From: an uncultured Planctomycetales bacterium
GTDB taxonomy: Bacteria > Omnitrophota > Gorgyraeia > Zapsychrales > Fredricksoniimonadaceae
DNA: 64,000 nt
Reading direction: 5' to 3'
Assembly (NCBI GenBank): GCA_964483785.1
Contig: CAZACW010000004.1
Span: 6,794-70,793 of the forward strand
Within the stretch, counting starts at the first letter, position 1; every line of letters begins with the position of its first letter. The translations under genes were made by a program, and so were the position numbers. Shown piece by piece: positions 5,036 through 62,743 of the stretch. The notes beneath the pieces are model-generated. The model was given only the letters and a program-made list of their open reading frames with translations, made no database searches and was not told the origin of the DNA.

Positions 5036-5039
5036 TTAT

Positions 5040-7574: not shown

Positions 7575-7647
7575 AAAAACTGGGACACATTGAAAAAACT
7601 GGGACACATTGACTTTTCTTAAAAAATTCAATGTGTCCCAGTTTTTT
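7575..7647. terminator. Hairpin terminator downstream of nth, built from a direct repeat plus an inverted copy.
   Basis: The unit aaaaactgggacacattga occurs twice (7575-7612) and its reverse complement tcaatgtgtcccagtttttt lies at 7628-7647, directly after the nth stop. T-runs are present on both strands. Confidence 0.6.
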
Positions 7648-11051: not shown

Positions 11052-11052
11052 A

Positions 11053-36357: not shown

Positions 36358-37265
36358 GCAGGCCCTTGCATTTTGAAAACAAAATGAGCGGGCTTCCCCA
36401 TGCCCATGGCCTGGGCCTGGCCAAGACTTCCAAGGGAAAATTTGTCATTAAATGTTATCCGGCTTATGCGGCCCAAAGAATCAGCTTGGAATACGCCATC
36501 AACCGCATCTTGACCCAACGCCGTTTCCCGACTCCGGCCATGCATGCGGGCCCGCCGCATCGTCCATTTTGCAGGATCAGCCACCAGCTCTTTTGCTGCT
36601 ACGATTTTATCGACGGTGACCATGCCTGGCAAAGCATCCAAAGCAGGGACACCTTCCGCCAGATCAATGGCAACTTGATCGGCATCAAAAACACCCTTGC
36701 TCCGCTTAAAGGACGCCTGCCTTTTTTAAGGCAGGAAAGCCTGGCGGCCAAGATCAAGGACCTGTCCCAAAAATCTAAAATCTTAAAAACCTATGACCAC
36801 AAAAATTTGATCGAAGGCCACTTGAAAAACATATGCCGCGCCTTTGAAAGTCAGCGCCGCGCCTTTGCCCGGCAATGGCTGCACAATTGCGCCACCCTGA
36901 CCAATTTTCTAAAATTCAAAAGCAAAATCTATGTGATTGATCTGGAACACGTACGTGAGGATTATGTTCTGGCGGACCTGGCCAGCCTTGTTTTGTCCTG
37001 CCTGTCGGTGGATGTCAAAAAAGATGTTCCGCTGTTCACCATCCAGGCCGTGATCAAAGACCATTATGCCCAGCTGCGGCCGTCTGAAGAAGACCTGGCC
37101 GTTGTTCGTGCCCTCTTTTTGCTTGGCCTGGTCAAGGAATATCTGCATTACATCCGGGCATGCCGATTGCCTGGTCCTGCTTCACAACAGTTGAGTTTAA
37201 AACAAGCCCGCGCCTTCCATCTTTTGGCTGACTCCAAAGCCCTGACGAAATTATGGCTGCCTTGA
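36318..37265 (+). CDS. APH-like kinase-fold protein, paralogous to the preceding gene.
   Basis: The 315-aa product is collinear with the previous product (FFDLGRP...KTSKGKFVIKCYP...RFPTPAMH...HNCATLTNF...VIDLEHVREDY). Confidence 0.65.
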   Translation: MEEIQQICRFFDLGRPLHFENKMSGLPHAHGLGLAKTSKGKFVIKCYPAYAAQRISLEYAINRILTQRRFPTPAMHAGPPHRPFCRISHQLFCCYDFIDGDHAWQSIQSRDTFRQINGNLIGIKNTLAPLKGRLPFLRQESLAAKIKDLSQKSKILKTYDHKNLIEGHLKNICRAFESQRRAFARQWLHNCATLTNFLKFKSKIYVIDLEHVREDYVLADLASLVLSCLSVDVKKDVPLFTIQAVIKDHYAQLRPSEEDLAVVRALFLLGLVKEYLHYIRACRLPGPASQQLSLKQARAFHLLADSKALTKLWLP

Positions 37266-38075
37266 TTGTTCTGACCAAATGCCCTGCACAATCCGGCGTA
37301 ATTTTTGATCATCAGAACATGAGTCATTGTCATCGGCCGTCGCCGCCGAAGGCTTGGCCCTGTGACCATACGTCTTGATCAAGAGTTTCCTTACGACGGC
37401 AGGGACCTGCAGTTCACGGGGCGCGCCGCGCAAAGGAAAAAATTGCCCTGCTGACAGGGAACGCAGCGATGATTTGCCTATTTTTAGTTCATCAGGCATG
37501 GAAAGGGAAAGGGCAATCATTTCCTTGGTTAAAAAGGGAAAGACAAATTCCAATCCGTGGGCCTGGGCCGCCTGATGATGGGCCTCTTCATCAAGCTTGG
37601 TCCTTGCCAGGCGCGCTTCAAGGCCTCCGGGATAAGGCTTTAACGCATCATCCCCAAACCATTGGTCCGCCCCCATGCCGGAGATGAACACATCCCCGGC
37701 GATTTTGCGATCATATTTTTTTAAAGCCGCGTACACCACCGCCAAATCAAGATCCAGCAAAGGTTCCAGCGTCATACGCGCGACGGTCTCAAAGGCAGAT
37801 AAAAATTCAGCGGTCTTGACATGAAGGATATGATGCTGCAGTCCCGCTTCCCTGGCTGTCAAGGAAGCGCCGGCCACGGTCAACGGGTTAAAATCTTCAA
37901 ATTGGACGGTCACAGCCGCAACCTTGGCCCCTTGCCGCCGGGCCAAGGAAGCCATCAACAGCGAATCAAAACCGCCGCTGAACATCACCGCCCTGGGCCG
38001 GCCTTTGATATCACCCAAGGCATGTTCAAGGGCCTGTTGGAGCTGATCAGAAACTTGTTCAATGGGCGCGGGCAT
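37251..38075 (-). CDS. PP-loop ATP pyrophosphatase (asparagine synthetase C-domain-like adenine nucleotide alpha-hydrolase).
   Basis: The 274-aa product has the SGGFDS PP-loop (AVMFSGGFDSLLMASL). It lacks the QueC-type Cys cluster. Confidence 0.6.
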   Translation of the reverse strand: MPAPIEQVSDQLQQALEHALGDIKGRPRAVMFSGGFDSLLMASLARRQGAKVAAVTVQFEDFNPLTVAGASLTAREAGLQHHILHVKTAEFLSAFETVARMTLEPLLDLDLAVVYAALKKYDRKIAGDVFISGMGADQWFGDDALKPYPGGLEARLARTKLDEEAHHQAAQAHGLEFVFPFLTKEMIALSLSMPDELKIGKSSLRSLSAGQFFPLRGAPRELQVPAVVRKLLIKTYGHRAKPSAATADDNDSCSDDQKLRRIVQGIWSEQSRQP

Positions 38076-38084
38076 GGGGGCAGA

Positions 38085-39062
38085 TCAGGCGTTTCTCACC
38101 CTTTGATAGGCTTCCATCTGCCCGGCGATCTCACGGTTTCGCCAGGCCACGCGGCAATTGATGCAGTGATGGTAAGTTCTAAAAGGTTCGCCGCCGTTTA
38201 AGGCCAACGCGCGGGCCTGTGTATAGCTTGCAGATTCCCAAACTGCCTTGAAGCCGGATTCATACGCGTTGCCGACCTTCACCGCCTGCATGAAACAGCA
38301 GACATTCACGTCCCCGTTGAATTTGATGGCGCTGTTAAACCAGCCGTGAAAACACGGGGGCCACTCGCCGCTGATCTCGGCTTTGTCCTGGTGCTGCTGC
38401 AGCTGTATGTGCCGGTTTTGCTCGCTCACTTCCAAGACCCTTTTTTGCACCACATTGGCGCCAATTTTACGGACCAGGTTTTCTGTTTTCAAAAGGTTCT
38501 GCGCGTTTAACCGCGTCATCACCAAAAGCACCTCAATGCAAAAATTCGGATTGTACAAGCTCCGCAGCCTGGCCAGTTCCCTGATATTTTTGATCACCTT
38601 GACAAAGAGGTCCTTGCCCATCAAGGCGCGGTAGGATTCCCGGTCCGCCTCTCCCATATTGATCACGATATGGTCGGCCCGTAAGATGTCGCGGCAGCGC
38701 TCGATGGGAAAGGTCCCGTTGGAAATCAGATTGATGGAAAAATCCGGCTCCAGATGCCGGAGCATATCATAAAACCGCGGGTGCAGGGTGGGCTCGCCCT
38801 GGCCGGAAAGGTAGATGGTATCCACCTGAAGCTCCTTGCATTCCAGGCTTAGCCTTTCAAATAATTCATAAGGCATGAAATTTTCGCCGCTTTTGACATG
38901 GGTGCTGCCCGGGCCGTGATAATAGCAGTACTGACAGGTCAGATTGCACAGCTCCGTGATATGAAACTGCACCATGGCAGGGCCGATCAGGGGACGGCCG
39001 GACTCGACGCCTTTTAACCGCAGCAATAATCTGCGCTTCTGCTCCCGATGGTTTAAGATCAC
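38085..39062 (-). CDS. Radical SAM protein with a SPASM/twitch-like Cys-rich C-terminus (rSAM #1).
   Basis: The product has CNLTCQYC (CxxxCxxC), a GQGEP motif and the C-terminal cysteines CFHGW...VNVCCFMQ...HCINCR. The start is set at GTG 39062, overlapping the upstream stop (GTGA), by homology to rSAM #2 (VILNHREQKRRLLLRLK). Confidence 0.75.
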   Translation of the reverse strand: MILNHREQKRRLLLRLKGVESGRPLIGPAMVQFHITELCNLTCQYCYYHGPGSTHVKSGENFMPYELFERLSLECKELQVDTIYLSGQGEPTLHPRFYDMLRHLEPDFSINLISNGTFPIERCRDILRADHIVINMGEADRESYRALMGKDLFVKVIKNIRELARLRSLYNPNFCIEVLLVMTRLNAQNLLKTENLVRKIGANVVQKRVLEVSEQNRHIQLQQHQDKAEISGEWPPCFHGWFNSAIKFNGDVNVCCFMQAVKVGNAYESGFKAVWESASYTQARALALNGGEPFRTYHHCINCRVAWRNREIAGQMEAYQRVRNA

Positions 39063-40054
39063 TTGACAGCCCCCAGAGCTGATCGTCTTAATCGTTGATA
39101 ATTCTGCAGATGCCCGGCAATCTCTTGGTTGCGGCCGGCCGCGCGGCAATTGATGCAGTCATGGTCTTTTCTGAAAGTCGGCCCGCCCAGCAGGGCACCG
39201 CTGCGGGCATCGGCATAGGCCTTGGACTCCCAGATTTCCTTAAACGGCTTCTCAAAGACATTGCCGATGGTCAAGCTTTGCATATAACAGCAGACATTGA
39301 CCCCGCCGTCCAATTTAATGGCGCTGTAAAACCAGCCGTGATAACAAGGCGGCCACTCGCCGTCAATTTCTGTATGCTCTGCTTGGCCTTTGAGCATAAG
39401 ATTACGGTTGTGCGATGCGGGCTCAAAGGTCTTTTTCTGCACCACATCAGCGCCGAGCCGCAGGACCAGGCGCTCGGTCCTTAATAGATGCTCATCATTG
39501 AGATTGGTCATGATAAAAACCACTTCAATCTTAAAGTCAGGATTGTACAGGGGCCGCAGTCTGGCCAGTTCCTTGATGTTCCTGATCACCCGTCCAAAAA
39601 GGTCCTTGCCCTGCAAGGCGCGGTAGCTGTCCCTGTCCGCGGCGCCTAAATTGATGATGATGCGGTCCGCCCGCAGCACATCGCGGCAGCGCTCCAAGGG
39701 AAAGGTGGCGTTGGTAAAAATCGTGACCGCAAAATCATGCTCCAGGCGTTTGAGCATGTCATAAAATCGGGGATGAAGGGACGGATCGCCTGTGCCGGAG
39801 AGATTGACCGTATCCACCTGCAAATCCGCGCAGTCCCGGGCCAATTGCTCAAAAAGCTCGAAAGACATATGGTTTTTTCCCGACGGGCGCAAGGGGCTTC
39901 CTGGGGAATAGTACCAACAGTACGGGCAGGCCAGATTGCAAAGGTCGGTGATCCTCAGATGCACCGTGGCCGGACCGATCAAGGCGCGCTGTTCTTCGAT
40001 GCTTTTCAGACGCAAAAGCAGCCTGCGTTTTTGTTCCCGGGGCTCAAGGATCAT
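39059..40054 (-). CDS. Radical SAM/SPASM-like protein (rSAM #2), paralogous to #1.
   Basis: The product begins MILEPREQKRRLLLRLKSIEE... and has CNLACPYC, SGTGDP and the C-terminal cysteines CYHGW...VNVCCYMQ...DCINCR. It is about 55% identical to #1. Confidence 0.8.
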   Translation of the reverse strand: MILEPREQKRRLLLRLKSIEEQRALIGPATVHLRITDLCNLACPYCWYYSPGSPLRPSGKNHMSFELFEQLARDCADLQVDTVNLSGTGDPSLHPRFYDMLKRLEHDFAVTIFTNATFPLERCRDVLRADRIIINLGAADRDSYRALQGKDLFGRVIRNIKELARLRPLYNPDFKIEVVFIMTNLNDEHLLRTERLVLRLGADVVQKKTFEPASHNRNLMLKGQAEHTEIDGEWPPCYHGWFYSAIKLDGGVNVCCYMQSLTIGNVFEKPFKEIWESKAYADARSGALLGGPTFRKDHDCINCRAAGRNQEIAGHLQNYQRLRRSALGAVK

Positions 40055-41202
40055 AAGGGGTCATGGGCGGCCAGCCGCAATTTTTCGTTTAATTTTTTGT
40101 TGATCGGCACATAACTGCAATGGCGGCATTCACGCCATTTGGATGAACAGGCATGGATCCCGGCAGATGCTTCGCGAAGCGTATCATGCAAAAAATCATT
40201 GTCGAACCAGATGTCCTTATACCGGCGCTCATTGACATTGCCGGCCACACAAACGCCCACCCCGTCGCAGGGGGCCACCACCTGGCCGTTCTCATCGATA
40301 TAGCTGTAAAACCAGCCCACCTGGCAGTTGACCTTCACTCCCGCGGTCGCATCATAGACAAGCAAGCGGTCATTGTTGGTTTTCGTAGGCGTCATGGTAT
40401 GGACATTGTCATTGTAATGGCCGTTGACGATAATGTTCTTTAAGTTTTCCAAATTATGGACAAAAGAATACCCTGCGCCCAGGGCCTCTTCCACCATGAC
40501 TTTTAATGCGCTCAAATGTTCCTCGGAAAAAACTAAATCCTTCATCTCTTCGGTGGCTTTAAAAAAACGGATGTAGACCTGGTCCACCCCCCTGTCCTGG
40601 GCCAAATCAAGAAAGGCCGGCATTTCCTTGTAGTTATGGTCATAAACAATGAAGGTCAAAACGATTTCCGGCTTGCCGTATTTACGGCGGGCAGCGAGGA
40701 GCCGGTCCAAATGCTTCAATAAATTCGCTAAAGAGCCGCTGGTCTTGCCGTGCACCCGGCGGTAGGAAATTTCATTCATGGCCGAGAGATTCACGATCAG
40801 GCGGTCCGCCAGGCAAAGATAACGCAGATGCTTGCCGTCAAAATCCAGGTGGCTGTAGGCCCGCAGGCGCATTCCCAATTCCTTGACCTTACGGAAGGCC
40901 TGCTCGGCAAAGGGGTAAAGGACGATTTCGCCCCCCTCCAGGTTGATCTCATTGACCCCGATCTCATGGCAATCTTCAAGGACGCCTTCCAGCACCTGAT
41001 AATCCAGCATCACGCGCTTCGGGGGGTTGGATATCAGCGGCGAAAAATACCAGCAGAACGCGCATTTGCGGTCGCAAGCCTGGATGGCATGGATATTGAC
41101 CGACTGCGGGCCGATGAGGGGCCTGCCCAGCAGGGCGCTTTTGGCCCTTAATTTGTCCTTCACGGCAGGAGACAATGATTTTAAGGATTCTGTATTGAGC
41201 AT
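40051..41202 (-). CDS. Radical SAM protein with a Cys-rich C-terminus (rSAM #3).
   Basis: The product has CDRKCAFC (CxxxCxxC) and the C-terminal cysteines CQVGW...APCDGVGVCVAG...HACSSKWRECRHC. Confidence 0.75.
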   Translation of the reverse strand: MLNTESLKSLSPAVKDKLRAKSALLGRPLIGPQSVNIHAIQACDRKCAFCWYFSPLISNPPKRVMLDYQVLEGVLEDCHEIGVNEINLEGGEIVLYPFAEQAFRKVKELGMRLRAYSHLDFDGKHLRYLCLADRLIVNLSAMNEISYRRVHGKTSGSLANLLKHLDRLLAARRKYGKPEIVLTFIVYDHNYKEMPAFLDLAQDRGVDQVYIRFFKATEEMKDLVFSEEHLSALKVMVEEALGAGYSFVHNLENLKNIIVNGHYNDNVHTMTPTKTNNDRLLVYDATAGVKVNCQVGWFYSYIDENGQVVAPCDGVGVCVAGNVNERRYKDIWFDNDFLHDTLREASAGIHACSSKWRECRHCSYVPINKKLNEKLRLAAHDPL

Positions 41203-41912
41203 GGTTGAGCAGTTTCCAATTGCGAAAACAATAAAGCGCGTAATTCCCGGCGTGCGGTCAAGGCCTTGAGCAGGTCCAAAAAATGGGTCAGTGCCCGCCG
41301 GTCTTGAACGGATTTAAAATCCGCGTGGTGTGTCAGCACGCCGGTGAGGATTTTAAGCTTGATGCTTTGGATCAGGGCTTTAAATACATCTTCAGCCTTG
41401 TACGTACTTGTTGTGCCAAGATCATAGCGGCTGAAGGACACCTGGGCCGGGAGATCTAAAAAATCTGCCTGTATCTTAGGCTTATGCGCCCCGGCTGAAA
41501 AATATTTGAACCCCTCTTCTTCTAAGATTGAAACCGTGTTTTGATCAAACCCGTGATAAGGCGGAACAAAGCCCGGCGTAAAATCTTCTCCAAAGGCCCG
41601 GTGCATCCTGCTTTTTCCTTCCCGGATATCTGCTTGCTGGTCCGTCCATGCCCGGGAGGCCCCGAACTCATATTTGCCCTGGCCCGGCGGGGCATGGTTT
41701 TTATGCAGCCAACCGTGCTGGACAATGTCGAGCAATTGGGGCGATTTTTGTTTGGCGTCCCGTAAAAATTTGACCAGGGCAGGTTCCATGGCCCCGGGGA
41801 TCACGGCCTGCACCACGGGAAGGCCGCGCTCAAAAGCCGCATCAAAAAAATAGCGGAAGGGCCCATCCAGGGTCCAGACATCATCGTTACGTATAAAAAC
41901 CCGTGCATTCAT
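41181..41912 (-). CDS. Polysaccharide deacetylase-like (CE4-like) protein.
   Basis: The product has CE4-like motifs: IRNDDV (motif 1), HGWLHKNH (motif 2) and FVPPYHGF (motif 3). It is 243 aa long. Confidence 0.5.
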   Translation of the reverse strand: MNARVFIRNDDVWTLDGPFRYFFDAAFERGLPVVQAVIPGAMEPALVKFLRDAKQKSPQLLDIVQHGWLHKNHAPPGQGKYEFGASRAWTDQQADIREGKSRMHRAFGEDFTPGFVPPYHGFDQNTVSILEEEGFKYFSAGAHKPKIQADFLDLPAQVSFSRYDLGTTSTYKAEDVFKALIQSIKLKILTGVLTHHADFKSVQDRRALTHFLDLLKALTARRELRALLFSQLETAQPCSIQNP

Positions 41913-41945
41913 GAGGCAAATCAGTATACTATTGTTTTACTTCCC

Positions 41946-43157
41946 ATGCGCGTCTTATTCCATTACACCCACAAGCAGACCCTCGGACATACGACAAGGT
42001 CCGTGGCGCTGGTCACGGCCCTCTGCCGCCATGGCGCCGAGGTCCTCGTCTTGCAGGGCGGGCTGCCCCAGCCTTTTGTCCAATTCCCTAAGAATGCCAA
42101 GGTGCTGGATCTTCCCCTGCCCTTTGACGGCCGGGGCAGTTTTCAGGCCCATGCCGCCCCTGTTTCAGCGGCGCAGCGCGCCCCATTTATCCTGAAAACA
42201 GCGGCAGATTTTAAGCCGGATGTCTTCATCACGGAATTTTTTCCATTCGGCCGGCTTTCTTATACGCCGGAATTGCTGCCGACCCTGCGCTTCCTGCGCA
42301 AAAAAGGCGTAAGGATTTTAGCCAGCATCGGATACCCGCTGTTGATTGACCTGGAGCGGTTTCAGGACCCCCGATTTTGCGCTTTGCACAAATCCATCTT
42401 TGCCTTCTTTGACACCTTCCTGATCCACACGCCGGACAAACTTGAAACAGCCTATATCCAAAAGACCATCCCTTCCGAGGCGCTGGCCAAACTGTATTTC
42501 AACCTGTTAAAAGAACTCGAACCAAGGACCAAGTACACCGGGTATGTCTATCCGCAACCCATGATCAGTGATACCGGCAAACCTCGGGCCGTTGCCAAGA
42601 ACAAAACCGTTGTCATCAGCCGCGGCGGCGGGGCCGTGTATCCGAAGCTCATCACTTTAAGCATCGAGGCGAAACGCTTACTGGCCCCTGACATTCATCT
42701 GATCATCGCCTGCGGTCCAGCCACAACAGCAAAAGAAATGGCCTTGTTCCAATCCTGCCTTAAGCCCAAAGACCAATCCAAAATATTTCTCACGCAAAGG
42801 ATCTCAGACCTGGATGATTATTTCAAAGACTGCCTGGCCTCGGTCAGCCTCTGCGGCTACAATACCTCGGTCCAATTGATGCGTCACGGCACACCCTCAG
42901 TCCTGGTCCCTTATCAAAACAATCTCTCCCGCGACAAGGTCTTAAAAACCAATACCAATGACCAGATTGCCCGCGCCCGTCTGCTCAAAGAACGCTTTTG
43001 CGGCCTCATCCTGGACTATGACCTGATGACCGCCTCTAATTTGGCTGAGGCCATTACCCAGCAAATCCACGCCCCCCGTCCTGCCCCTGCCCCCCAGGCC
43101 TGGTTTAACGGGGCTGATCTGACAGCACGCCTGGTGCTTGAAGGTAGTCCAAATTGA
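41946..43157 (+). CDS. GT-B fold glycosyltransferase (MurG/GT28-like C-domain), copy 1.
   Basis: The 403-aa product has N-terminal ...LGHTTRSVAL..., mid-region KPDVFITEFFPFG and a C-terminal VISRGGGAVYP...SVSLCGYNTSVQLM...PSVLVPY donor-binding region. Confidence 0.6.
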   Translation: MRVLFHYTHKQTLGHTTRSVALVTALCRHGAEVLVLQGGLPQPFVQFPKNAKVLDLPLPFDGRGSFQAHAAPVSAAQRAPFILKTAADFKPDVFITEFFPFGRLSYTPELLPTLRFLRKKGVRILASIGYPLLIDLERFQDPRFCALHKSIFAFFDTFLIHTPDKLETAYIQKTIPSEALAKLYFNLLKELEPRTKYTGYVYPQPMISDTGKPRAVAKNKTVVISRGGGAVYPKLITLSIEAKRLLAPDIHLIIACGPATTAKEMALFQSCLKPKDQSKIFLTQRISDLDDYFKDCLASVSLCGYNTSVQLMRHGTPSVLVPYQNNLSRDKVLKTNTNDQIARARLLKERFCGLILDYDLMTASNLAEAITQQIHAPRPAPAPQAWFNGADLTARLVLEGSPN

Positions 43158-48166: not shown

Positions 48167-48195
48167 AAATCAGCAGTGCGGCGTCTTAGACCTCT

Positions 48196-50413: not shown

Positions 50414-50417
50414 AGGT

Positions 50418-51470: not shown

Positions 51471-51533
51471 GAGCGTCTTGGACTTTTAAACGATTCTGGA
51501 GGAGAGATGGTTTTTATTATAATGCGCCGGGCA

Positions 51534-52895: not shown

Positions 52896-52901
52896 GGCTG
52901 A

Positions 52902-53873: not shown

Positions 53874-53985
53874 ATCCGCCCTCCGGGGCGCTCTTTGTCA
53901 TGAGCGTCAGCCATAAGGTCCCGGCGCCCAAAATCAGCACCCCTATGACCCAATAGAGCCAGTATCTTTTTATAAAATCGTTCAT
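53854..53985 (-). CDS. 44-aa single-TM micro-protein (MNDFIKRYWLYWVIGVLILGAGTLWLTLMTKSAPEGGFVYQIN).
   Basis: Manual translation shows the ATG overlaps the stop of the upstream SGNH gene (ATGA). The product has a W-rich N-region plus one TM helix. It is not in the ORF track because it is under 60 aa. Confidence 0.45.
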   Translation of the reverse strand: MNDFIKRYWLYWVIGVLILGAGTLWLTLMTKSAPEGGFVYQIN

Positions 53986-55996: not shown

Positions 55997-56021
55997 GAAC
56001 AGACGCCTTGCGCTTTGCCTT

Positions 56022-57395
56022 TCAGAACTGGAAATAGTAAAATGGATTTTGTCCATGGTCTCCCCAAAACAGGATGCTTAAAACAAGCCCGTAATAGTAC
56101 GCCCATCGCACCCAAGGCCTGTCCTTGGCAAAGATAAAATGCCCGCCGGTATTCTGCAGCAATAATTCTAAAAAGATCAGGGCAATGATCAATTCGATGG
56201 AAAGGACCCACCATTTGATATTAAAACCGAAAGACCTGTAACTCTCTGCCCAGGCACCTTTTCCCCATCCGCGTCCTAAATGGCCTACGATAAAAAGGGC
56301 GTCCGCCATGTCCCTGGCCCTTAAAAAAATGTTGGAAAAGCCGACTAAAGCGAGCGTCAAAAACACCTGGGCTGTCCGGACGAATACACTGCTTTTAAGA
56401 CCGGATTTTCTGCCGGGGCTCATGATCACATATAGTCCGTTGAGCACGCCCCAGACCATCAGCGTCGGGGAGGAGCGCTGCCCCAAGGCGCTGATCACAA
56501 AGACCACAATAATGTTCAAACACCATCGCCATGCAGGACATCGATGACCTCCTAAGGGCAGATAGACATAGTCTTTCAGCCATTGCGCATAGGTGACGCT
56601 CCAGCGCCGCCACCATTCAGCGGCCGAAGTGGAAAACAAGGGGAAATTGAAATTATCCGGCAAGCGAAAACCCAGGACTTTCGCCGCCCCTACAGCCATG
56701 TCGCAATATCCGGAAAAATCGCAATATAACTGCACCATGAAAAACAAGGCCGCCACAATGAATTGGGGCCCTTGATGACTGGGCACATCCCTGAAAACTT
56801 CATCCACCAAGACGGCCAAACGGTCCGCAATGACAACTTTTTTAAACAAGCCCCAGGCCATGAGCTTCAAGCCGTCGGCAATCCTCTGATAATCCACCTC
56901 ATGCCTCTCATGAAATTGAGGGATCAAGCGGTAGGACTTTTCCAAAGGCCCGGCCGCCAGTTGGGGAAAAAACATCACATAAAGGGCATAAATCCCCCCA
57001 TGCCGTTCTGCCCTCTGGCGTCCCCTGTAGACTTCAATGACATAAGAAAGGTTCTGCATCACATGGAAGGTCAGGCCGACCGGTATGATCCAATTGAGCA
57101 TGGACAGATTGAAATATTTGAAAACGAACAAAAAACTGCACGTGAGGATGATGCTTAGGACCAGATACGGCTTGGCGTTGCGATTTTTGAGGCGGGCCCC
57201 TTCGATCCAAAGGCCTGCCCAAAAGTTGATGATGATCATCAAAAGCAGAACCAGCAGATACGGCGGGAAAAACCACATGTAAAAGACGCAGCTGGCGGCC
57301 AGCAGCAGGGCCCAGCGCCAGGGGTGAGGGCACAAAAAATAAGACACGGACACAGCGAAGAAAAAAAACAAAAATGGGGCGGAATTAAAAAACAT
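56022..57395 (-). CDS. MBOAT-family O-acyltransferase (DltB/AlgI-like), copy 2.
   Basis: The polytopic product has the MBOAT His region (WRRWSVTYAQWLKDYVYLPLGG). The start is set at ATG 57395 (MFFNSAPFLFFFF...). Confidence 0.8.
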   Translation of the reverse strand: MFFNSAPFLFFFFAVSVSYFLCPHPWRWALLLAASCVFYMWFFPPYLLVLLLMIIINFWAGLWIEGARLKNRNAKPYLVLSIILTCSFLFVFKYFNLSMLNWIIPVGLTFHVMQNLSYVIEVYRGRQRAERHGGIYALYVMFFPQLAAGPLEKSYRLIPQFHERHEVDYQRIADGLKLMAWGLFKKVVIADRLAVLVDEVFRDVPSHQGPQFIVAALFFMVQLYCDFSGYCDMAVGAAKVLGFRLPDNFNFPLFSTSAAEWWRRWSVTYAQWLKDYVYLPLGGHRCPAWRWCLNIIVVFVISALGQRSSPTLMVWGVLNGLYVIMSPGRKSGLKSSVFVRTAQVFLTLALVGFSNIFLRARDMADALFIVGHLGRGWGKGAWAESYRSFGFNIKWWVLSIELIIALIFLELLLQNTGGHFIFAKDRPWVRWAYYYGLVLSILFWGDHGQNPFYYFQF

Positions 57396-57460
57396 GGGCA
57401 AGCTCCAAGGCCCTGCAGAAATCATGTTCACAAATTTTTGATAATACATTACTATAAGGC

Positions 57461-58375
57461 ATGGTGTTGCCCCCACCAACCATTATTCTTTTTGTGCTCA
57501 TCCTCCTGATAGGCATCTTCACCACCATCACGGACCTCAAAAGCCAGAAAATCTACAATGGCCATCTCCTGGCCGGTGCCATCTTAGGGCTCGGGGCCAT
57601 GATTTACGCCCTCATGTTGCAGGACCGGCAGGTCCTATCCCATGTCATCAACGGCGCGGTTGCTTTTATCCTCGGCTTCTTGCTGCACAGGTCCGCCGTC
57701 TGGAAAGGAGGCGACGCCAAATTATTCACGCTGTACGCCTTCCTCATGCCGGAGCCGGTGTACAATCAAGTCCCTTGCCCGCCGGTCGTAAACCTTTTTG
57801 CCTGTTCTTTTATTTCTGCGATGCTCATCCTCTTCCCATTTTTTATCAAAGATCTCATCATGCACCATCGGGCCATCGTTCTTGACCTGACCCGGCCCGT
57901 CAAGGTCCAGGCCTCCTTCAGGGCCATCGGAAGGACCGTATGCATATCCTGGATGCTCTTCCCGGTCTATTATCTTGCAAGAATGGCCAACCCTGTTATG
58001 ATCTTGACTGTAACCTACCTGATTTTCAACAAAGGCTATTCCGTCAAAAGTGAAGCCAAAAAACATTATATCGTGGATTTTTTAAAAAAGGAGTTCGTCG
58101 GGCTGTCGATCGGCATGGTCCTGGGATTGGGCCTGCGCCTTTGGCTGTCGCCCCATTCCCTGACCTTGCGCTCGCTGGCTGTGTTCTTGGCCATGATCAG
58201 CGTCTCAACGGCCATCTCGACGTGCATTCATACCGCCTTGCAGCATTTTAAGAATTACCATGAGCGCGTATCTTTTGCCCCCCTCCTTTTGTTCGGATGC
58301 TTGTTAAGTTATACCCCTTTCTTGACAATATTGACGCATTGGACTGCCCAATGGAACGTCCTCCTTTACCATTAG
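57461..58375 (+). CDS. A24-family (prepilin peptidase-like, CpaA/TadV-type) aspartic peptidase membrane protein with an extended C-terminal TM region.
   Basis: The first catalytic Asp context (TITDLKSQKIYN) and the second Asp motif (WKGGDAKLF, cf. GxGDxKLL) are both present. The 304-aa product is about twice the size of CpaA. Confidence 0.6.
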   Translation: MVLPPPTIILFVLILLIGIFTTITDLKSQKIYNGHLLAGAILGLGAMIYALMLQDRQVLSHVINGAVAFILGFLLHRSAVWKGGDAKLFTLYAFLMPEPVYNQVPCPPVVNLFACSFISAMLILFPFFIKDLIMHHRAIVLDLTRPVKVQASFRAIGRTVCISWMLFPVYYLARMANPVMILTVTYLIFNKGYSVKSEAKKHYIVDFLKKEFVGLSIGMVLGLGLRLWLSPHSLTLRSLAVFLAMISVSTAISTCIHTALQHFKNYHERVSFAPLLLFGCLLSYTPFLTILTHWTAQWNVLLYH

Positions 58376-59340
58376 AGATCATCATCGAGATCACCGGCAA
58401 ATGCAGGCTCTTATGCCCTTATTGCACAGGCCCGCGGACCGCCGATGTTCCTTTGCGTGAGATCCAGGAAACCATGGATGAGGCCGGCCGTCTTGGGATC
58501 GGCGCCGTGCGCATCACCGGAGGGGAACCGCTGATCCATCCGGACATCCAAAAAATTTTGGCCTATGCCAAATCCAAAAAATTCAAGGTCCTTTTAAATA
58601 CCGCCGCTGAAAACATCAGCCCCTCCCTGATGAAGTCGATCATCGCCAATGTCGATATAGCCCTCATCTCTGTGCAGGGGCATGATGAGGCATCCAACCT
58701 TGCCTACACCCGCACGCGGCATCCCTTTCTGGATAAAATCAAGAACATATTCCTTTTAAAATCCTATCTGCCGACCCTGTGGCTCGCCACGGTCATCACG
58801 CCTCTCATGGCCGGGTCATTTAAAAAATTCATGCCGCTGGTCAAAACGATCAATCCAGCGGCATGGACCTTGCTGCGCCCGATCAGCGCCATGAATGACG
58901 ATTTAAAACAAATGGATGCGGGTTTTTACCGCCGCCTGTCGCTTCAGATCCTCAAGGCCCGCCGAGAACAGGTCAATGTTTTTATTGCGAACCCCATCCC
59001 CTTATGCTTGACGGGGAACTTGAATATAGGCCGGGAAATTTTTTTCGGCGCCAGTTTCGATGACGGCCATGTCCGCATCGTGCGCAGCGCACAAGGGTAT
59101 TTCAAGCCGAGCTATTTTGTAGAACGGGATTTGGGCCGCAGCATCCAGGAAGCTTGGGACCATCCCTTCTTGAAAGAACTTGACCGCACTGATTATCTGC
59201 CCCAGGAATGCCAACGCTGCCCGGTCCATGAGATTTGCCGCGGCGGCTGCAGGGCCATGGCCGAGAAGGCGTTCCAAACTGCCCTGGCGCCGGATCCTTT
59301 GTTCGATTCAAAGCTGGCCCAAAAAGCCCTGTCAAAATAA
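58351..59340 (+). CDS. Radical SAM/SPASM-like protein (rSAM #10).
   Basis: The product has CRLLCPYC, TGGEPLI and the C-terminal cysteines CQRCPVHEICRGGC. The start is set at ATG 58351, which overlaps the peptidase gene by 25 nt. Confidence 0.7.
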   Translation: MERPPLPLEIIIEITGKCRLLCPYCTGPRTADVPLREIQETMDEAGRLGIGAVRITGGEPLIHPDIQKILAYAKSKKFKVLLNTAAENISPSLMKSIIANVDIALISVQGHDEASNLAYTRTRHPFLDKIKNIFLLKSYLPTLWLATVITPLMAGSFKKFMPLVKTINPAAWTLLRPISAMNDDLKQMDAGFYRRLSLQILKARREQVNVFIANPIPLCLTGNLNIGREIFFGASFDDGHVRIVRSAQGYFKPSYFVERDLGRSIQEAWDHPFLKELDRTDYLPQECQRCPVHEICRGGCRAMAEKAFQTALAPDPLFDSKLAQKALSK

Positions 59341-59490
59341 AGCGTAAATGAACGGCGCGCTGGCTGAGCCCTGGGTCAAAACAATGATCAGCCCCATCAA
59401 GACCATGATCAAAACGATGGGCAGCAGCCATAACCGCTTTCTGACTGTTAAAAACTGCCAAAATTCTTTTAAAACACTTAATTTGGACAT
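59332..59490 (-). CDS. SxtK-like (DUF5989-type) 52-aa membrane micro-protein.
   Basis: Manual translation gives MSKLSVLKEFWQFLTVRKRLWLLPIVLIMVLMGLIIVLTQGSASAPFIYALF. This pattern is typical of the small proteins that follow NodU/CmcH carbamoyltransferases. It is not in the ORF track because it is under 60 aa. Confidence 0.6.
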   Translation of the reverse strand: MSKLSVLKEFWQFLTVRKRLWLLPIVLIMVLMGLIIVLTQGSASAPFIYALF

Positions 59491-59499
59491 TGATGGACC

Positions 59500-59769
59500 C
59501 TAAAATTGGTTTAAATACCGCTGCTTAACGTCGGACGATGCCTCAACCGGGCTCCAGTAAGAAGGCCTTCGATCATCCCAGGTTCTTTCCATAAAATCCT
59601 TGCCCCTAAGGCGAAGCAGGAGGGCTATGGGTGTCAACACCATCAAATATAGGATGGTCAGCAATACAAAACTGATTACCGCCTGCACCCATCCTGCCGC
59701 CTTGATTGCGGCATCCAAAATATATTTTAAGTCGCCCGAAAAATTTTCCTGAAATGGCCTTTTCATCAA
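59500..59769 (-). CDS. SxtJ-like small membrane protein.
   Basis: The 89-aa product has one TM helix and lies immediately downstream of the carbamoyltransferase with a 4-nt overlap. It follows the known carbamoyltransferase + SxtJ + SxtK trio arrangement. Confidence 0.5.
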   Translation of the reverse strand: MMKRPFQENFSGDLKYILDAAIKAAGWVQAVISFVLLTILYLMVLTPIALLLRLRGKDFMERTWDDRRPSYWSPVEASSDVKQRYLNQF

Positions 59770-61520
59770 TCCAGCTCCACGGCGATTAACTCACGGTTAT
59801 AGCTCCCCTGGCCGGGCTGCTTTTGGCGGTCAAAAAGACACTGCCCCACCAAAAGATAATCCATTTCCGTGCTCATAAAACAGCGGTAACTGTCCAGGCT
59901 TGAGCAGACCACGGGTTCTCCCCTGACGTTAAATGAGGTGTTGATCAAAACAGCACAGCCTGTCAGTTGCTCAAAAGCTTTCAGGATGCTGTAAAAAAAC
60001 GGATGATCATGCTCATCCACGGTCTGGACCCTGGCGGAATGGTCCACATGGGTCACCGCCGGAATTTGCTCGCCCTTCACAGGGGCCGTCAAAAGCATGT
60101 AGGGACTCTCCTGTTGGAGGTCAAAATAATCCCGGCAGCGTTCCTTTAGCACCACCGGAGCAAACGGACGAAAAGGCTCCCGAAACTTGATCTTCAGGTT
60201 CAATTTCGCCGCCATCGCCTCATCGCGCGGGTCTGCGATGATGCTGCGCGACCCTAAGGCGCGGGGGCCGAATTCCATCCTGCCGCGGCAAATGCCCACC
60301 ACCTTCTGCTCATTAAGGAGGCCGGCTATTCTTTGCGGCAGCTTTTCTTCATCCACATGCTCATAGACCCAGCCGTTTTGATCGGCCATCGTTCGGATAT
60401 CCTCTTGCCGGGGCCCCAACAAAGACCCCTGCTGAAGATCGTGAACTCCGTCGGCAAAGCGGGGCCTCTCTAAAAAATGGTGCCAGGCCAGCATGGCGGC
60501 GCCCAGGGCGCCGCCGGCATCGCCGGAGGCCGGCTGGATCCAAATCTTTTCAAAACCGGCCTCCTTTAAAATTTTAGCATTGGCCACGCAATTAAGGGCC
60601 GCGCCTCCGGCCAAGCAGAGATTTTTTGCTCCAGTCAGCGCCCTGGCATGCCCGGCCATTTTCAGCATCACCTCCTCGGCGATCTCCTGGATGGAGCGCG
60701 CCACATCCATGTGAAACTGTTCAATCTTTTCTTCGGGCCGTCGCGCCGGGTTTCCCAAAAGCCCTTCGAAAGCGCTGTTGATCATGGTGAGCCCGCAGGG
60801 GAATCCAAAATATGTCACGTTCAGGCGAAAGGACCCGTCCTCCTTGATATCGATCAAATGCCGCCGGATCAAATCCGCATAGACAGGACGGCCGTAGGGT
60901 GCCAGGCCCATCAATTTATATTCCCCGGAATTGACGCGAAAACCGACGTAATAGGTGAAGGCCGAATACAAAAGTCCCAGCGAATGCGGAAATTTCATCT
61001 CTTGAAGCAAGGTCATTTTATTCCCCCGGCCCTCACCGATGCTGGCCGTTGTCCATTCTCCCACTCCGTCCAAGGTCAGGACCGCGGCCTCCTTAAAAGG
61101 AGACGGGAAAAACGCGGAGGCCGCGTGGGACTCATGGTGGAGAGGGAATAAAACCGGTTTGCGGACGCCCAAGGCGGAAAGGATTTCTTCTTTTAAAAAA
61201 ATCCTTTCTTTAAGCCAAAGAGGCATGGCTTTGACAAACGAGGACAACCCCAAGGGTGCAAAGGACAGGTAGGTCAGTAAAAGGCGTTCAAATTTTAAAA
61301 ACGGCTTTTCATAAAACGCCACATAATCGATTTCGTCCGTGCCGATGCCCGCTTCTTTCAGGCAGTAGTCAATCGCCCTTCGGCAAAAAGCGGCATCATG
61401 TTTTTTGCGGGAAAACCGCTCCTCCTGGGCCGCGGCCACAATAGCGCCGTCTTTAAGCAGACACGCGGCGCTGTCATGATAGTATGCGGAAATGCCTAAT
61501 ATATAAACAGGCTTAATCAT
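59766..61520 (-). CDS. NodU/CmcH/TobZ-family carbamoyltransferase.
   Basis: The 584-aa product begins MIKPVYILGISAYYHDSAACLL..., a Kae1/ASKHA-like N-domain, and has a YrdC-like C-domain. Confidence 0.85.
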   Translation of the reverse strand: MIKPVYILGISAYYHDSAACLLKDGAIVAAAQEERFSRKKHDAAFCRRAIDYCLKEAGIGTDEIDYVAFYEKPFLKFERLLLTYLSFAPLGLSSFVKAMPLWLKERIFLKEEILSALGVRKPVLFPLHHESHAASAFFPSPFKEAAVLTLDGVGEWTTASIGEGRGNKMTLLQEMKFPHSLGLLYSAFTYYVGFRVNSGEYKLMGLAPYGRPVYADLIRRHLIDIKEDGSFRLNVTYFGFPCGLTMINSAFEGLLGNPARRPEEKIEQFHMDVARSIQEIAEEVMLKMAGHARALTGAKNLCLAGGAALNCVANAKILKEAGFEKIWIQPASGDAGGALGAAMLAWHHFLERPRFADGVHDLQQGSLLGPRQEDIRTMADQNGWVYEHVDEEKLPQRIAGLLNEQKVVGICRGRMEFGPRALGSRSIIADPRDEAMAAKLNLKIKFREPFRPFAPVVLKERCRDYFDLQQESPYMLLTAPVKGEQIPAVTHVDHSARVQTVDEHDHPFFYSILKAFEQLTGCAVLINTSFNVRGEPVVCSSLDSYRCFMSTEMDYLLVGQCLFDRQKQPGQGSYNRELIAVELD

Positions 61521-62743
61521 GGCTTGGCATGATTCAGCTGTTGGACCAACACCTTGTCGAAAAATTCCCTGCCGCCAAACTCTGCCTTAAGCAGGGGCCT
61601 GCCCTGGGGCGGACTGGCAGCGGCTTTTTGAACAGCTGATTTTAAATGTGCGGCGGTCAATGCCTGGATGGGAATGATCTCGGCCCCGATCCTTTCTTTT
61701 AACAAGGCCGCGCGGGCAAGCTGCTCCTGGATTGATTTGTCCCCATAACCGGCAAAAGGGACCACGACGGATTTTTTATGATATTTCAGCAGCATCACCG
61801 AAGTGTGGTAGGAGGCCAGGGAAACGCAAACATCGCTTTGCGCGATCAAACCTTCATAGTCACGGACCGCTCTCATCAAAAGAAGATTATGGGTTTTCTT
61901 TTGGGCGGCCAGCTTAGTAAAATAACGCCATTCCTGTAAGGTGGTCGAGGGGCCTGCCACCCCCGTCCAAAAATACTCATTGCCCAAAAGCTCGCTGGCC
62001 CGGATCGCCTGCGCGATCACCTTAGGATAGACCGCCCCGCCCCCGCGCAGCACAGCCACCTTGCAGGCGCCCCGGGGAATGGATGGCCGGGCCACAGGGC
62101 CGCCTTCATCCTGACGGATGACATTCTGTTGAGGCAGCAGATAGCCTGCAAAGGTGATTTTGGAGGCATGCCGGTCAAAAAAATCCAGATAGGCCCGCCG
62201 GACAGAAAAAGGCAGCTGTCGGGCCATATATTCTTTTTCCGACGGCGGGGAAAAAATAATGATCCGTTGGTATAAACCCAGGATCTTCTCCCTCCATCCA
62301 TGGCTGGCTCCGGTCAATAACGGATAGCCGGCCACGGCCCACAACAAGGCCCCTTGGCGAAACGCTTGAACAAGCGGCGGAATCAGGCTGTGGCGGCATT
62401 CTTCATTGCCCAAGGGAAAAAACTCTGTCACAAACAAGTCCGGCTTGATACGCCTCAATAGGTCCAGGTGCATGCCACAGTTCATGAGCGCATCCGCCGG
62501 CGCCTTCGCAAGGAGATGTCTAAAATGCCGGCGGTCAGCCATGGGCCCTGGACTCGCCTGCACCCGTCCCCATTCCTGAAGGCGGGCCTTGACCTGCCGT
62601 CTGCCCCTTTGGATAAAAAAAAGATCCCCGCCAGGGAATCTTTTTTTAAAGACTTCGCTCATGGCCAAGACGCGGGACGTATGGCCTAAACTATCATAAT
62701 GGGAAAATGAAATGACCGCCCTGGGGCACAGATTACTGGCCAT
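61517..62743 (-). CDS. GT-B fold glycosyltransferase (MurG/GT28-like), copy 2, paralogous to 41946..43157.
   Basis: The product is collinear with copy 1 (ISFSHYDSLGHTSRVLA / KPDLFVTEFFPLG / VLRGGGAVYPKVI / VCVSLASYHTSVML...VVVPF). The start is set at ATG 62743 (MASNLCPR...). Confidence 0.6.
   Translation of the reverse strand: MASNLCPRAVISFSHYDSLGHTSRVLAMSEVFKKRFPGGDLFFIQRGRRQVKARLQEWGRVQASPGPMADRRHFRHLLAKAPADALMNCGMHLDLLRRIKPDLFVTEFFPLGNEECRHSLIPPLVQAFRQGALLWAVAGYPLLTGASHGWREKILGLYQRIIIFSPPSEKEYMARQLPFSVRRAYLDFFDRHASKITFAGYLLPQQNVIRQDEGGPVARPSIPRGACKVAVLRGGGAVYPKVIAQAIRASELLGNEYFWTGVAGPSTTLQEWRYFTKLAAQKKTHNLLLMRAVRDYEGLIAQSDVCVSLASYHTSVMLLKYHKKSVVVPFAGYGDKSIQEQLARAALLKERIGAEIIPIQALTAAHLKSAVQKAAASPPQGRPLLKAEFGGREFFDKVLVQQLNHAKP

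Follow-up and report, generated by a model that had tools for sequence, protein, structure and literature searches.

A Candidate Expanded HXS-Type Peptide Island with Ten Radical SAM Genes in Omnitrophota

The HXS system, in which the genes run HxsD–HxsB–HxsC–HxsA, was defined by TIGRFAMs/NCBIfam models and characterized in 2026 as an antiphage system, and its HxsA protein was shown in Escherichia coli to block phage DNA entry (PMC13128918). In the E. coli system, HxsB, HxsC, and HxsD install a +8-Da modification on the sequence SHRSS and are required for N-terminal processing (PMC13128918). Here we describe a related arrangement in a 64,000-nucleotide stretch of a 79,931-bp Omnitrophota contig (CAZACW010000004.1 of assembly GCA_964483785.1; hereafter the window), in which an initial annotation, made from the sequence alone, had noted ten radical S-adenosylmethionine (rSAM) genes among sugar-type tailoring enzymes. 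A gene for a 91-residue HxsA-like precursor peptide lies 750 bp past the right edge of the region so described (62743), with genes of HxsB and HxsD type upstream of it. The rSAM genes appear to form the tailoring arm of a 30- to 45-kb biosynthetic island that is present in many contigs of the uncultured phylum Omnitrophota. On balance, we favor the reading that this is an expanded HXS-type island for a peptide synthesized by the ribosome and modified after translation (a RiPP), the product of which would be glycosylated, multiply radical-modified, and exported.

The precursor peptide is encoded on the minus strand at 63496–63771 (MKRKNKGKTAAKKPALTKSLGALMKDEDGFVSKETILKVGLSTVAALGVVGSIADNGSTQTHTNVVSAGGPCLGLGGGSVNHTNVATHTSY). 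It comprises a leader, KSLGxLMKDEDGFVSKETILKVGLSTVAALG, a hydrophobic stretch, and a variable core, which contains three His-x-Asn/Ser motifs, only one of them H-x-S, and ends in HTSY. The peptide aligns over its full length, but weakly, with the HxsA3 model NF038309 (22.3 bits against a cut-off of 65). A profile search gathered at least 227 clusters of related peptides, all unnamed or "hypothetical," and every one that is attributed to an organism comes from Omnitrophota. Among 26 aligned peptides, 29 columns are invariant and positions 18 to 48 are nearly all invariant or near-invariant, while the core varies in length and sequence except at H62, N64, the usual Cys, H82, N84, TT, H88, S90, and Y91. 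Such a conserved leader joined to a variable core is a RiPP signature and, at the level of sequence, the island fits the definition of a RiPP locus, with a precursor of this kind next to its candidate maturase. An exhaustive profile search gave 82 representatives at 50% identity, which share the leader motif DE[DS]G-x-[VI]-S-K-[ED], the hydrophobic stretch, and an AxA-like site. Peptides of this wider family carry genuine His-x-Ser/Asn repeats and usually end in HSSY, and a 466-residue rSAM protein again precedes one of them. Two long repeat proteins that matched the peptide profile (P0259 and P0292) proved to be low-complexity artifacts. The initial annotation took the rSAM proteins for sugar-tailoring enzymes rather than RiPP maturases and named a short precursor peptide as a finding that would overturn this view; a peptide of this kind is present at 63496–63771, although sugar-type tailoring probably still occurs.

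The window ends inside the gene that precedes the peptide gene. Its last stretch, 63749–64000 on the minus strand, encodes the C terminus (last ∼83 codons) of an HxsB-like rSAM/SPASM peptide maturase, which is cut by the window end and is 58% identical by tblastn to the HxsB of L074 (L numbers denote the loci compared). A 2.7-kb Logan contig from the same sample with an identical peptide (L111) carries the full HxsB-like gene and, upstream of it, an HxsD-like gene. The L111 HxsB-like protein (477 residues) aligns with positions 1–466 of the 466 of TIGR03978 and scores 359.5 bits, where the cut-off is 370 and the second-best family reaches 108, and its L074 ortholog exceeds the cut-off at 377.9 bits. 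The HxsD-like protein of L111 (140 residues) has a weak match to Pfam HxsD and none in NCBIfam at E 1e-5. Pfam HxsD (PF27806) is clear in L073, L074, L112, L113, and L115, and the HxsD model TIGR03976 gives the L074 protein 32.5 bits against a cut-off of 50. No gene separates HxsB from the peptide in the loci mapped, and in L111 the end of HxsB overlaps the start of the peptide gene by 23 nt.

The operon continues from the peptide into genes for a Cys-rich protein, a glycosyltransferase (GT#2), and a carbamoyltransferase, so that its order is HxsD-like protein, HxsB-like rSAM protein, peptide, Cys-rich protein, GT#2, and carbamoyltransferase. In the window, the spacing is +8 nt from the peptide to the Cys-rich gene, −11 nt from there to GT#2, and −4 nt from GT#2 to the carbamoyltransferase, which places the peptide physically in one operon with GT#2 and the carbamoyltransferase. 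GT#2 (61517–62743, minus strand) is recognized as a glycosyltransferase only by its 27% identity (E 2e-43) to GT#1, the glycosyltransferase of the rSAM operon. One or two Cys-rich genes stand between the peptide and GT#2 in most loci, and in L115 the two are direct neighbors. The NodU/CmcH-type carbamoyltransferase (59766–61520, minus strand; Carbam_trans_N 320.6 bits, Carbam_trans_C 230.8 bits), the start of which shares 4 nt with the GT#2 stop, is followed downstream by two small membrane proteins on the same strand (59332–59766, from the L001 gene calls), a 52-residue DUF5989 protein and an 88-residue protein. The secreted Cys-rich protein (62733–63488, minus strand; ∼250 residues) has no Pfam or NCBIfam match, is found beside the peptide at 31–36% identity in relatives, and might serve the peptide as partner, chaperone, or immunity protein. 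It bears the motif YIKDYVGxYGPxW...SGCR...EEKDF, was also noted in L073 (2524–3324 and 8404–9210) and L113 (10289–11812), is duplicated in some loci, and in L115 lies apart from the peptide. A DDE transposase gene at 5813–7132 of L073 is situated between HxsD and a second set of A24 peptidase, Cys-rich, and peptide genes, which suggests that the peptide module was duplicated locally. The peptide, the Cys-rich protein, the HxsB-like fragment, and the A24 peptidase at 57461–58375 (described below) had not been part of the initial annotation.

Comparison with the HXS system shows that the island shares an HxsB-clade rSAM/SPASM maturase, full length to TIGR03978 and above its cut-off in L074, a small HxsD-like protein encoded upstream to give the order HxsD–HxsB–substrate, and a substrate whose N-terminal region is for export or processing and whose C-terminal motifs are of His-x-Ser type, becoming in the wider peptide family true HxS repeats ending in HSSY. 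However, the island lacks HxsC. The characterized HxsA has a signal peptide and a peptidoglycan-binding domain, whereas the 91-residue peptide leaves no room for such a domain, and canonical HxsA has five basic HxS repeats, as against three His-x-Asn/Ser motifs here. The island also adds an A24 peptidase, two GT-B glycosyltransferases, a DegT aminotransferase, the carbamoyltransferase, MBOAT/SGNH pairs, and at least ten further rSAM proteins, and it occurs in Omnitrophota, whereas the characterized system is found in Pseudomonadota. Because HxsC and the substrate architecture fail to correspond, we file the island as an expanded HXS variant and not as a member.

With moderate confidence, we assign the ten rSAM proteins, rS1 to rS10, to the maturation of the 91-residue peptide. 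A Pfam scan of 46 window open reading frames (ORFs; 26 in 30–63.5 kb and 20 in 0.6–30 kb) bore out the initial annotation on these genes: all ten exceed the PF04055 Radical_SAM gathering threshold (30.7–81 bits against 29.5), and each has exactly one CxxxCxxC motif. The shorter starts at 39062 (rS1), 49290 (rS8), and 58351 (rS10) agree with ortholog alignments and with the L001 gene calls. The Cys-rich SPASM/twitch C termini that had been ascribed to most of them are present in part: PF13186 SPASM is above threshold in five (rS1, rS2, rS3, rS6, and rS9), rS4, rS5, and rS10 have C-terminal CxxC clusters that SPASM does not score, and rS7 and rS8 have only two C-terminal Cys each. None of the ten reaches a curated NCBIfam cut-off, the best scores being 100 bits against 380 for W_rSAM_matur and 100 against 340 for PapB, which rules out the housekeeping rSAM families, a result that would have overturned the initial annotation. 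PDB sequence searches returned generic cores only.

By BLASTP the proteins fall into paralog groups, with rS1 and rS2 60% identical to each other, rS5 at 32–35% and rS3 at 25% to that pair, and rS7 and rS8 28% identical. All but rS10 are on the minus strand. The rS1 gene (38085–39062; Radical_SAM 49.9 bits, SPASM 40.9 bits) overlaps that of its paralog rS2 (39059–40054), which has both Pfam matches and an AlphaFold2 model with a predicted local distance difference test score of 83. The most conserved member is rS3 (40051–41202), with 82–85% identity in L002 and L004 and 36% in L007. rS4 (43105–44121), with its C-terminal Cys cluster, has orthologs in L002, L004, L007, and L115; rS5 (44102–45094), of the rS1/rS2 group, has a 53% identical ortholog in L115 directly after peptide–GT#2; and rS6 (45091–46038) is 66% identical in L002 and L107. 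The radical cores of rS7 (47135–48166) and its paralog rS8 (48196–49290) are closest to those of PapB/HxsB-type peptide maturases, rS7 being 32% identical to the HxsB core across 117 residues and having neither SPASM nor a RiPP recognition element (RRE). rS9 (50418–51470) has orthologs in L080, L084, L090, L093, L112, and L113 and is 32% identical in L007. The plus-strand gene rS10 (58351–59340), which is translationally coupled to that of the A24 peptidase, encodes a PqqE/AhbD-like core, also of StsB type, and a C-terminal CxxCx5Cx3C cluster.

We used Foldseek to compare the rS2 model with PDB folds, as the initial annotation had proposed for BtrN. The best match is BlsE (TM score 0.64), and BlsE, SkfB, MoaA, SuiB, BtrN, anSME, DesII, and EpeE are matched about equally. 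The model does align to BtrN (4m7t; TMq 0.50, TMt 0.65 when normalized on BtrN), and others are as good or better. Since these matches mix sugar, nucleotide, and peptide enzymes, the fold cannot settle the substrate, and the BtrN match, no better than those to peptide or nucleotide rSAM enzymes, does not single out a BtrN-type dehydrogenase. In addition, the C-terminal domain of the rS2 family weakly resembles the auxiliary-cluster domain of BtrN (E 6e-6), the similarity being confined to that domain. The named members among 71 rS2 homologs are all "Candidatus Omnitrophota/Omnitrophica." When the rS2 alignment was used to scan 185k species genomes, a search in which the degenerate CxxxCxxC pattern draws in unrelated rSAM proteins, there were among the matches listed one close fragment (L006), one remote locus (L007), and otherwise unrelated rSAM proteins.

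The minus-strand genes from 51470 to 37251 mostly overlap or abut (largest gap 34 nt), and the stretch reads as one predicted operon broken only by the plus-strand gene GT#1. GT#1 (41946–43157), a GT-B glycosyltransferase with a GT28-like C-terminal domain (PF04101 Glyco_tran_28_C, 30 bits), is 63–68% identical in L002 and L004, has two GT28-like counterparts in L007, and gave nothing useful in a PDB sequence search. The DegT-family pyridoxal phosphate-dependent sugar aminotransferase (46035–47180, minus strand; PF01041, 256 bits) has as its best curated NCBIfam families LegC, PseC, and WecE, at 130–174 bits and all under their cut-offs, and has a 49% identical ortholog in L007. A PaaK-like adenylate-forming ligase (49247–50413, minus strand) matches PaaK structures in the PDB (E 7e-18) and, below the cut-offs, Pfam AMP-binding and NCBIfam DVU_1553 and PaaK; its L007 ortholog is 43% identical. 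At the end of the operon, an AsnS-like PP-loop adenylating enzyme (37251–38075, minus strand; PF00733, 77.8 bits) consists of the synthetase domain only, with no glutaminase domain, and has orthologs at 54–55% identity in L002 and L004 and a counterpart in L007 (Asn_synthase, 37 bits). The putative deacetylase (41181–41912, minus strand), similar to carbohydrate esterase family 4 (CE4), is a DUF2334 protein (PF10096, 38.7 bits; CE4 match only subthreshold) with orthologs in L002, L004, L107, and L115. Two plus-strand genes adjoin this operon. The product of the second (36318–37265) is an APH-fold kinase (PF01636 APH, 33.1 bits against a cut-off of 23.2) without a PDB relative by sequence, while that of the first (35314–36357) has no Pfam match and is APH-like only through 37% identity to the second; orthologs of the first are found as three copies in L002, within the locus in L007, and beside rS10 in L084/85. 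Neither APH-like protein matched a curated NCBIfam resistance family. By Pfam, paralogy, and the PDB, the gene inventory of the initial annotation was correct, from DegT, the two GT-B enzymes, the deacetylase, and the PaaK-like and PP-loop enzymes to the MBOAT/SGNH sets, the carbamoyltransferase, and the APH-like genes. All-against-all BLASTP found paralog pairs in the island among its GT, MBOAT, SGNH, and APH-like proteins.

The gene order rS8–rS7–DegT–rS6–rS5–rS4–GT(−)–DUF2334–rS3–rS2/rS1–AsnS–APH recurs at 50–85% identity in two homolog neighborhoods mapped by tblastn. As this order and this degree of protein identity are kept in many independent contigs, the density of rSAM genes, which had been called exceptional and indeed is, does not arise by chance. 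A metagenome scan with an A24 alignment gave 35 loci, which were then mapped by tblastn. More than 10 independent contigs share the architecture [DegT–rS7–rS8–PaaK–variable block]/A24–rS10/GT#2–CysRich–peptide–HxsB–HxsD, often followed by T2SSF and two T2SSE genes; the collinear loci are L073, L074, L075, L080, L084/85, L089, L090, L093, L102, L106, L112, and L113. L112 and L002 are 4.5 kb apart on one NCBI contig and together form an island of ∼45 kb with ∼17 rSAM genes. Of the 11 contigs that have an rS2 homolog and are 100 kb or longer, 10 also carry the peptide. In the divergent Omnitrophica locus L115 (GCA_028870995.1), the order is HxsD–HxsB–peptide–GT#2–rS5 (53%)–rS4-like–DUF2334 (49%)–...–an rS1/2/5-like SPASM protein, and the linkage kept through this rearrangement argues for function and not mere synteny. 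A deeply diverged version (25–49% identity) is found in L007, from a metagenome-assembled genome labeled Planctomycetia, with DegT, two GT28-like genes, orthologs of rS3, rS4, rS7, rS8, and rS9, three rS1/2/5-like genes, and PaaK-like, AsnS-like, and APH genes. Our reading is further supported by the fact that the rSAM/DegT/GT#1/DUF2334/PaaK/AsnS operon, the A24–rS10 pair, and the peptide operon remain together in many contigs, and by the division of the paralogs GT#1 and GT#2 between the rSAM operon and the peptide operon.

Individual relatives have further genes. At 3140–7885 of L112 (GCA_030688425.1), a second HxsD is followed by a MiaB/RimO-like rSAM gene, a 516-residue protein with two rSAM domains, the C-terminal half of which is HxsC-like (75 bits), and a 490-residue protein. 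In L115, genes for a TonB-dependent receptor, Peripla_BP_2, a PP-loop protein, and a pterin-binding DUF4346 protein (4044–8081) lie between the pilus genes and HxsD, and this arrangement is a possible hint, from this single locus, that the His-rich peptide binds metal or is reimported.

The A24-family membrane aspartyl peptidase (57461–58375, plus strand; 304 residues) is CpaA/TadV-like and matches PF01478 at 33 bits (cut-off 26.5). It has no methyltransferase domain and an extra C-terminal domain, and both catalytic Asp residues are kept, with D25 and G83-G84-D85 invariant in 27 sequences. The A24–rS10 pair occurs in at least ten loci. In L007 the A24 gene adjoins DegT and an rS10-like gene, and in the distant loci L007 and L107 it lies among DegT, GT, and rSAM genes with no pilus genes nearby. 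L098 has two A24 copies (2562–3434 and 10302–11186) within 12 kb, among homologs of rS9, rS10, the B12-binding rSAM protein, and a 291-residue protein described below. The 91-residue peptide is the only window ORF that fits the prepilin pattern, and G29 (−1), F30 (+1), and E34 (+5) are invariant in 26 of 26 Omnitrophota peptides. The A24 peptidase with both Asp residues, the Gly −1, Phe +1, and Glu +5 residues, and the hydrophobic helix are features of type IV/Flp pilins, and the mature peptide, which would be ∼62 residues, is similar in length to Flp or Geobacter-type mini-pilins. Unlike in type IV pilins, the leader is acidic directly ahead of the Gly, and the hydrophobic segment is broken by Lys at +4 and +9.

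The leader could be removed by A24 cleavage at G29|F30, in keeping with the invariant residues given above, or alternatively by a signal peptidase that cuts after the hydrophobic stretch; the wider peptide family, in which what follows the Gly does not resemble a pilin, favors the second route. T2SSE and T2SSF genes, none of which is present in the window, stand beside HxsD in L073, L075, L089, L090, L093, L106, L113, and L115. Pilus genes flank the island in at least seven relatives, which recalls pilin glycosylation islands and TadV–CpaA systems, and may be mere neighbors. We suggest, tentatively and as the less probable extension of our reading, that the island represents a class of hypermodified HxsA-like, pilin-like miniproteins, in which a precursor acted on by more than 10 rSAM enzymes and by sugar-type tailoring is processed by A24 and displayed or secreted by a type IV filament.

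The enzyme set allows a pathway to be proposed. HxsB and HxsD would probably bind the leader and modify the His-x-Ser/Asn motifs, and GT#2 and GT#1 would glycosylate the core, either at Thr/Ser or at the conserved N-[VI]-T sequon. DUF2334 could then deacetylate the attached sugar, and the compact twitch/SPASM rSAM proteins could oxidize, epimerize, or deoxygenate the scaffold-bound sugar. An NDP-sugar dehydratase is not present, so the keto group used by DegT could come from a twitch-type rSAM dehydrogenase acting on the attached sugar, a step in which the logic of the initial annotation survives, and DegT would aminate this group. The PaaK-like and AsnS-like enzymes might acylate or amidate the sugar, and the carbamoyltransferase would add a carbamoyl group. 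rS7, rS8, and rS10 may modify the peptide itself, because their cores resemble those of peptide maturases (PapB/HxsB-like for rS7 and rS8, PqqE/StsB-like for rS10). The product would be exported, and the MBOAT/SGNH pairs would O-acylate it outside the membrane. Judged by these gene families (two GT-B enzymes, DegT, the CE4-like deacetylase, the carbamoyltransferase, and the MBOAT/SGNH pairs), the product very likely has a sugar moiety.

Parts of this scheme have counterparts elsewhere. As in other rSAM RiPP systems (sactipeptides, ranthipeptides/PapB, streptide/SuiB, and epipeptide/EpeE), the precursor has the shared pattern and adjoins a SPASM maturase, with rS7/rS8 closest to PapB/HxsB cores and rS10 to the PqqE/StsB type. 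Like glycocins, which are glycosylated RiPPs, the island has a glycosyltransferase in the precursor operon, but a GT28-like GT-B enzyme in place of the glycocin GT2. Known RiPP clusters have one to a few rSAM proteins, as against 11 to ∼17 here, and the ten small rSAM proteins lack an RRE. To our knowledge, DegT, DUF2334, carbamoyltransferase, and MBOAT/SGNH proteins are not part of any described RiPP class. In 2-deoxystreptamine aminoglycosides, tailoring proceeds by the BtrM glycosyltransferase, the BtrD deacetylase, BtrN/BtrQ oxidation, BtrB/BtrS transamination, and TobZ carbamoylation, and hopanoid cyclitol-ether synthesis uses the HpnI glycosyltransferase, the HpnK deacetylase, and the HpnJ rSAM enzyme. 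The enzyme types of the island fit this order of glycosyltransferase, deacetylase, twitch-type rSAM, DegT, and carbamoyltransferase. In contrast to those systems, the island has no cyclitol synthase and no hopanoid genes, and its deacetylase and glycosyltransferases come from other families. On-scaffold tailoring, as the initial annotation envisaged it, is plausible, but the aglycone is most likely a ribosomal peptide and not a cyclitol.

Several observations weigh against a peptide-centered island. HxsC (TIGR03977, cut-off 267.9 bits) has no counterpart among the window rSAM proteins, the best being rS8 and rS4 at 47.4 and 38.4 bits, and none of the ten rSAM proteins has an RRE domain. Searches within 10 kb of the remote loci L007 and L107/L108 gave no homolog of the peptide, nor did L007, L107, L098, and L086 yield peptide homologs or small ORFs that are His-x-Ser-rich or prepilin-like. 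The close examples all come from one phylum, so that collinearity could partly be inherited gene order. The wider peptide family does not keep the G-F-x-x-x-E pattern, and this weakens the A24 site. The best fold match of the rS2 model, BlsE, is a nucleoside-sugar enzyme, the core operon could make a free or lipid-linked glycan, and the enzymatic steps of the pathway are inferred throughout from gene families. All characterized DegT-family enzymes that we know of act on sugars or inososes. The BlsE match and the core genes in L007 and L107 without a peptide detected in their flanks would suit two unrelated neighbors, a small HXS-type module (HxsD, HxsB, the peptide, and perhaps A24) and an independent locus for a surface glycan or glycolipid, kept side by side by inherited synteny. 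DegT, GT-B, DUF2334, carbamoyltransferase, and MBOAT/SGNH proteins are classic carbohydrate-modifying families, and some relatives have PMT_2, GT2, UDP-glucose dehydrogenase, and epimerase genes beside the core. However, the peptide gene is translationally coupled to GT#2 and the carbamoyltransferase, the GT#1/GT#2 paralogs are divided across the two halves, and in L115 the rS5, rS4-like, and DUF2334 orthologs come directly after peptide–GT#2. In the distant versions an A24 peptidase, an enzyme that requires a protein to act on, sits among the core genes, and the flippase, polymerase, initiating transferase, and nucleotide-sugar synthesis genes of a glycan locus are not seen in the window locus. 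This reading, the strongest competitor of ours, is rather unlikely.

The same missing genes bear on a capsule or O-antigen locus, which the initial annotation had already set aside. Pfam found no Wzx/Wzy, initiating transferase, or NDP-sugar synthesis gene among ORFs of at least 100 residues in 35–63.5 kb, of which four have no match at all and could include a divergent member; with flippase, polymerase or ABC exporter, initiating phosphoglycosyltransferase, and nucleotide-sugar genes not encountered, such a locus was rejected. An aminocyclitol cluster of BtrN/BtrS/BtrM/BtrD/TobZ logic with APH-type self-resistance kinases, which the initial annotation had proposed, would account for the co-occurrence of DegT, GT-B, deacetylase, carbamoyltransferase, and APH-fold kinases and for the BtrN resemblances of rS2 given above, but none of the 46 scanned ORFs is a dehydroquinate-synthase-like 2-deoxy-scyllo-inosose synthase or an inositol-phosphate synthase, and lacking a cyclitol synthase the island fails the definition of such a cluster. 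Furthermore, the deacetylase is DUF2334 and not LmbE-type, the glycosyltransferases are GT28-like and not GT4, the APH-like proteins fall outside curated resistance families, BtrN is just one among many equally good fold matches, and the precursor peptide, HxsB, and HxsD share an operon with GT#2. This explanation is hardly credible. Its other proposal, a glycan that decorates the adjacent fiber protein, is very improbable as well. That protein (33459–35177, minus strand) is a secreted, Gly/Asn/Thr-rich chain of 572 residues with a C-terminal Peptidase_S74 intramolecular-chaperone domain, as in phage tail fibers, and a terminal coiled coil. Its gene adjoins the APH genes, and L002 has a Gly-rich (Gly_rich_2) 548-residue protein at the same relative position, but the two share no homology (best BLASTP E 3.4), a gene of this kind is missing next to the AsnS or APH end in L004/L005 and L007, and the conserved protein-type substrate of the island is the 91-residue peptide. 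An elaborated HXS antiphage system, in which the matured His-rich peptide blocks phage DNA entry in the periplasm or on the surface, is compatible with the expanded-island reading and is itself doubtful. In its favor, HxsB and HxsD-like genes are present, the HxsD–HxsB–peptide order matches canonical HxsD–HxsB–HxsC–HxsA (PMC13128918), and the peptide has a hydrophobic export segment. However, the peptide lacks both a peptidoglycan-binding domain and the basic residues invoked for DNA binding (PMC13128918) and has no more than three His-x-Asn/Ser motifs, HxsC is absent, PADLOC matches only generic rSAM cores (partial pVip-type hits), and the position of the island is fixed in many contigs of one phylum, unlike that of a mobile defense island. 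Of HXS systems, 99.7% are reported to be in Pseudomonadota (PMC13128918).

Between the rSAM operon and the A24 gene lies a variable accessory block (51534–57479, minus strand), which encodes MBOAT1, SGNH1, SGNH2, a membrane-anchored protein of 369 residues with no assigned family, and MBOAT2. The MBOAT proteins score 87.7 and 67.1 bits in Pfam and one SGNH protein 49.8 bits (GDSL_2), while the protein at 52902–53873 is identified as SGNH only by 33% identity to that at 53982–54962. The pair of MBOAT2 and the 369-residue protein also occurs in L075 and L102. The block at the same position in other genomes (L075, 2028–6302; L090, 1–4035; L074, 3752–9892) differs in content. Some have two ketosynthases, an acyl carrier protein, and an MBOAT protein; others have an HTTM-domain protein, an ApbA-type reductase, a B12-binding rSAM protein, and two proteins of 282–291 residues with no assigned family. 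The B12-binding rSAM protein partially matches the "ladderane-type" model TIGR04072 (103 bits). antiSMASH reports "ladderane" clusters in Omnitrophota (PMC9902471), and the variable block may be their source.

The first 30 kb of the window hold ordinary housekeeping genes (purine synthesis, serine hydroxymethyltransferase, TsaC, CCA enzyme, and MnmE), and the island begins at ∼33–35 kb, where G+C falls from ∼0.56 to ∼0.51. The fiber protein lies between TatC and the island. A lysine-2,3-aminomutase-like (KamA-like) rSAM gene, a HemN/HemW-like one, and the HxsB fragment bring the rSAM genes of the window to 13. The KamA-like gene (5335–6519, minus strand), with a LAM_C domain, is unrelated to the island and overlaps by 4 nt a D-Ala-D-Ala-ligase-type ATP-grasp gene (6516–7532, minus strand). 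The HemN/HemW-like housekeeping gene (31178–32263, minus strand; 106 bits, HemN_C domain) adjoins TatC and a polyprenyl synthase. The housekeeping part also includes a PurS–PurL fusion of 977 residues (24197–27130, minus strand) and a fusion of Sua5/TsaC with a low-molecular-weight phosphotyrosine phosphatase domain (19088–20155, minus strand). Rfam had no match in the whole window. Of ten window proteins looked up, eight form singleton clusters at 90% identity, and the other two were absent from the collection under the starts used.

The island is undescribed. Its members carry no annotation beyond "radical SAM protein" or "hypothetical protein," all homologs are unnamed or "hypothetical," as the initial annotation had anticipated for the locus and its product, and a literature search found no paper that ties Omnitrophota to it. 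If the link between the peptide and the rSAM genes holds, this would be the most rSAM-rich peptide-centered cluster known to us, with 11 rSAM proteins here and ∼17 in a relative, and HXS, which has been characterized as a four-gene antiphage system of Proteobacteria, would be extended to a much more complex, glyco-modified product. About ten uncharacterized rSAM clades would become available together with a defined, expressible 91-residue substrate, so that the chemistry could be tested in a heterologous host. Leads to the biological role come from the type IV filament genes that neighbor the island in relatives and from the antiphage role of canonical HXS. The lifestyle of Omnitrophota has been inferred to be host dependent (PMC10066038), and the product would be a candidate surface or secreted molecule for these organisms. 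Should the pilin-like reading prove true, the island would define a new RiPP/glycopeptide class and a large reservoir of new radical chemistry, and its product would possibly be part of the host-interaction apparatus of the ultra-small Omnitrophota.

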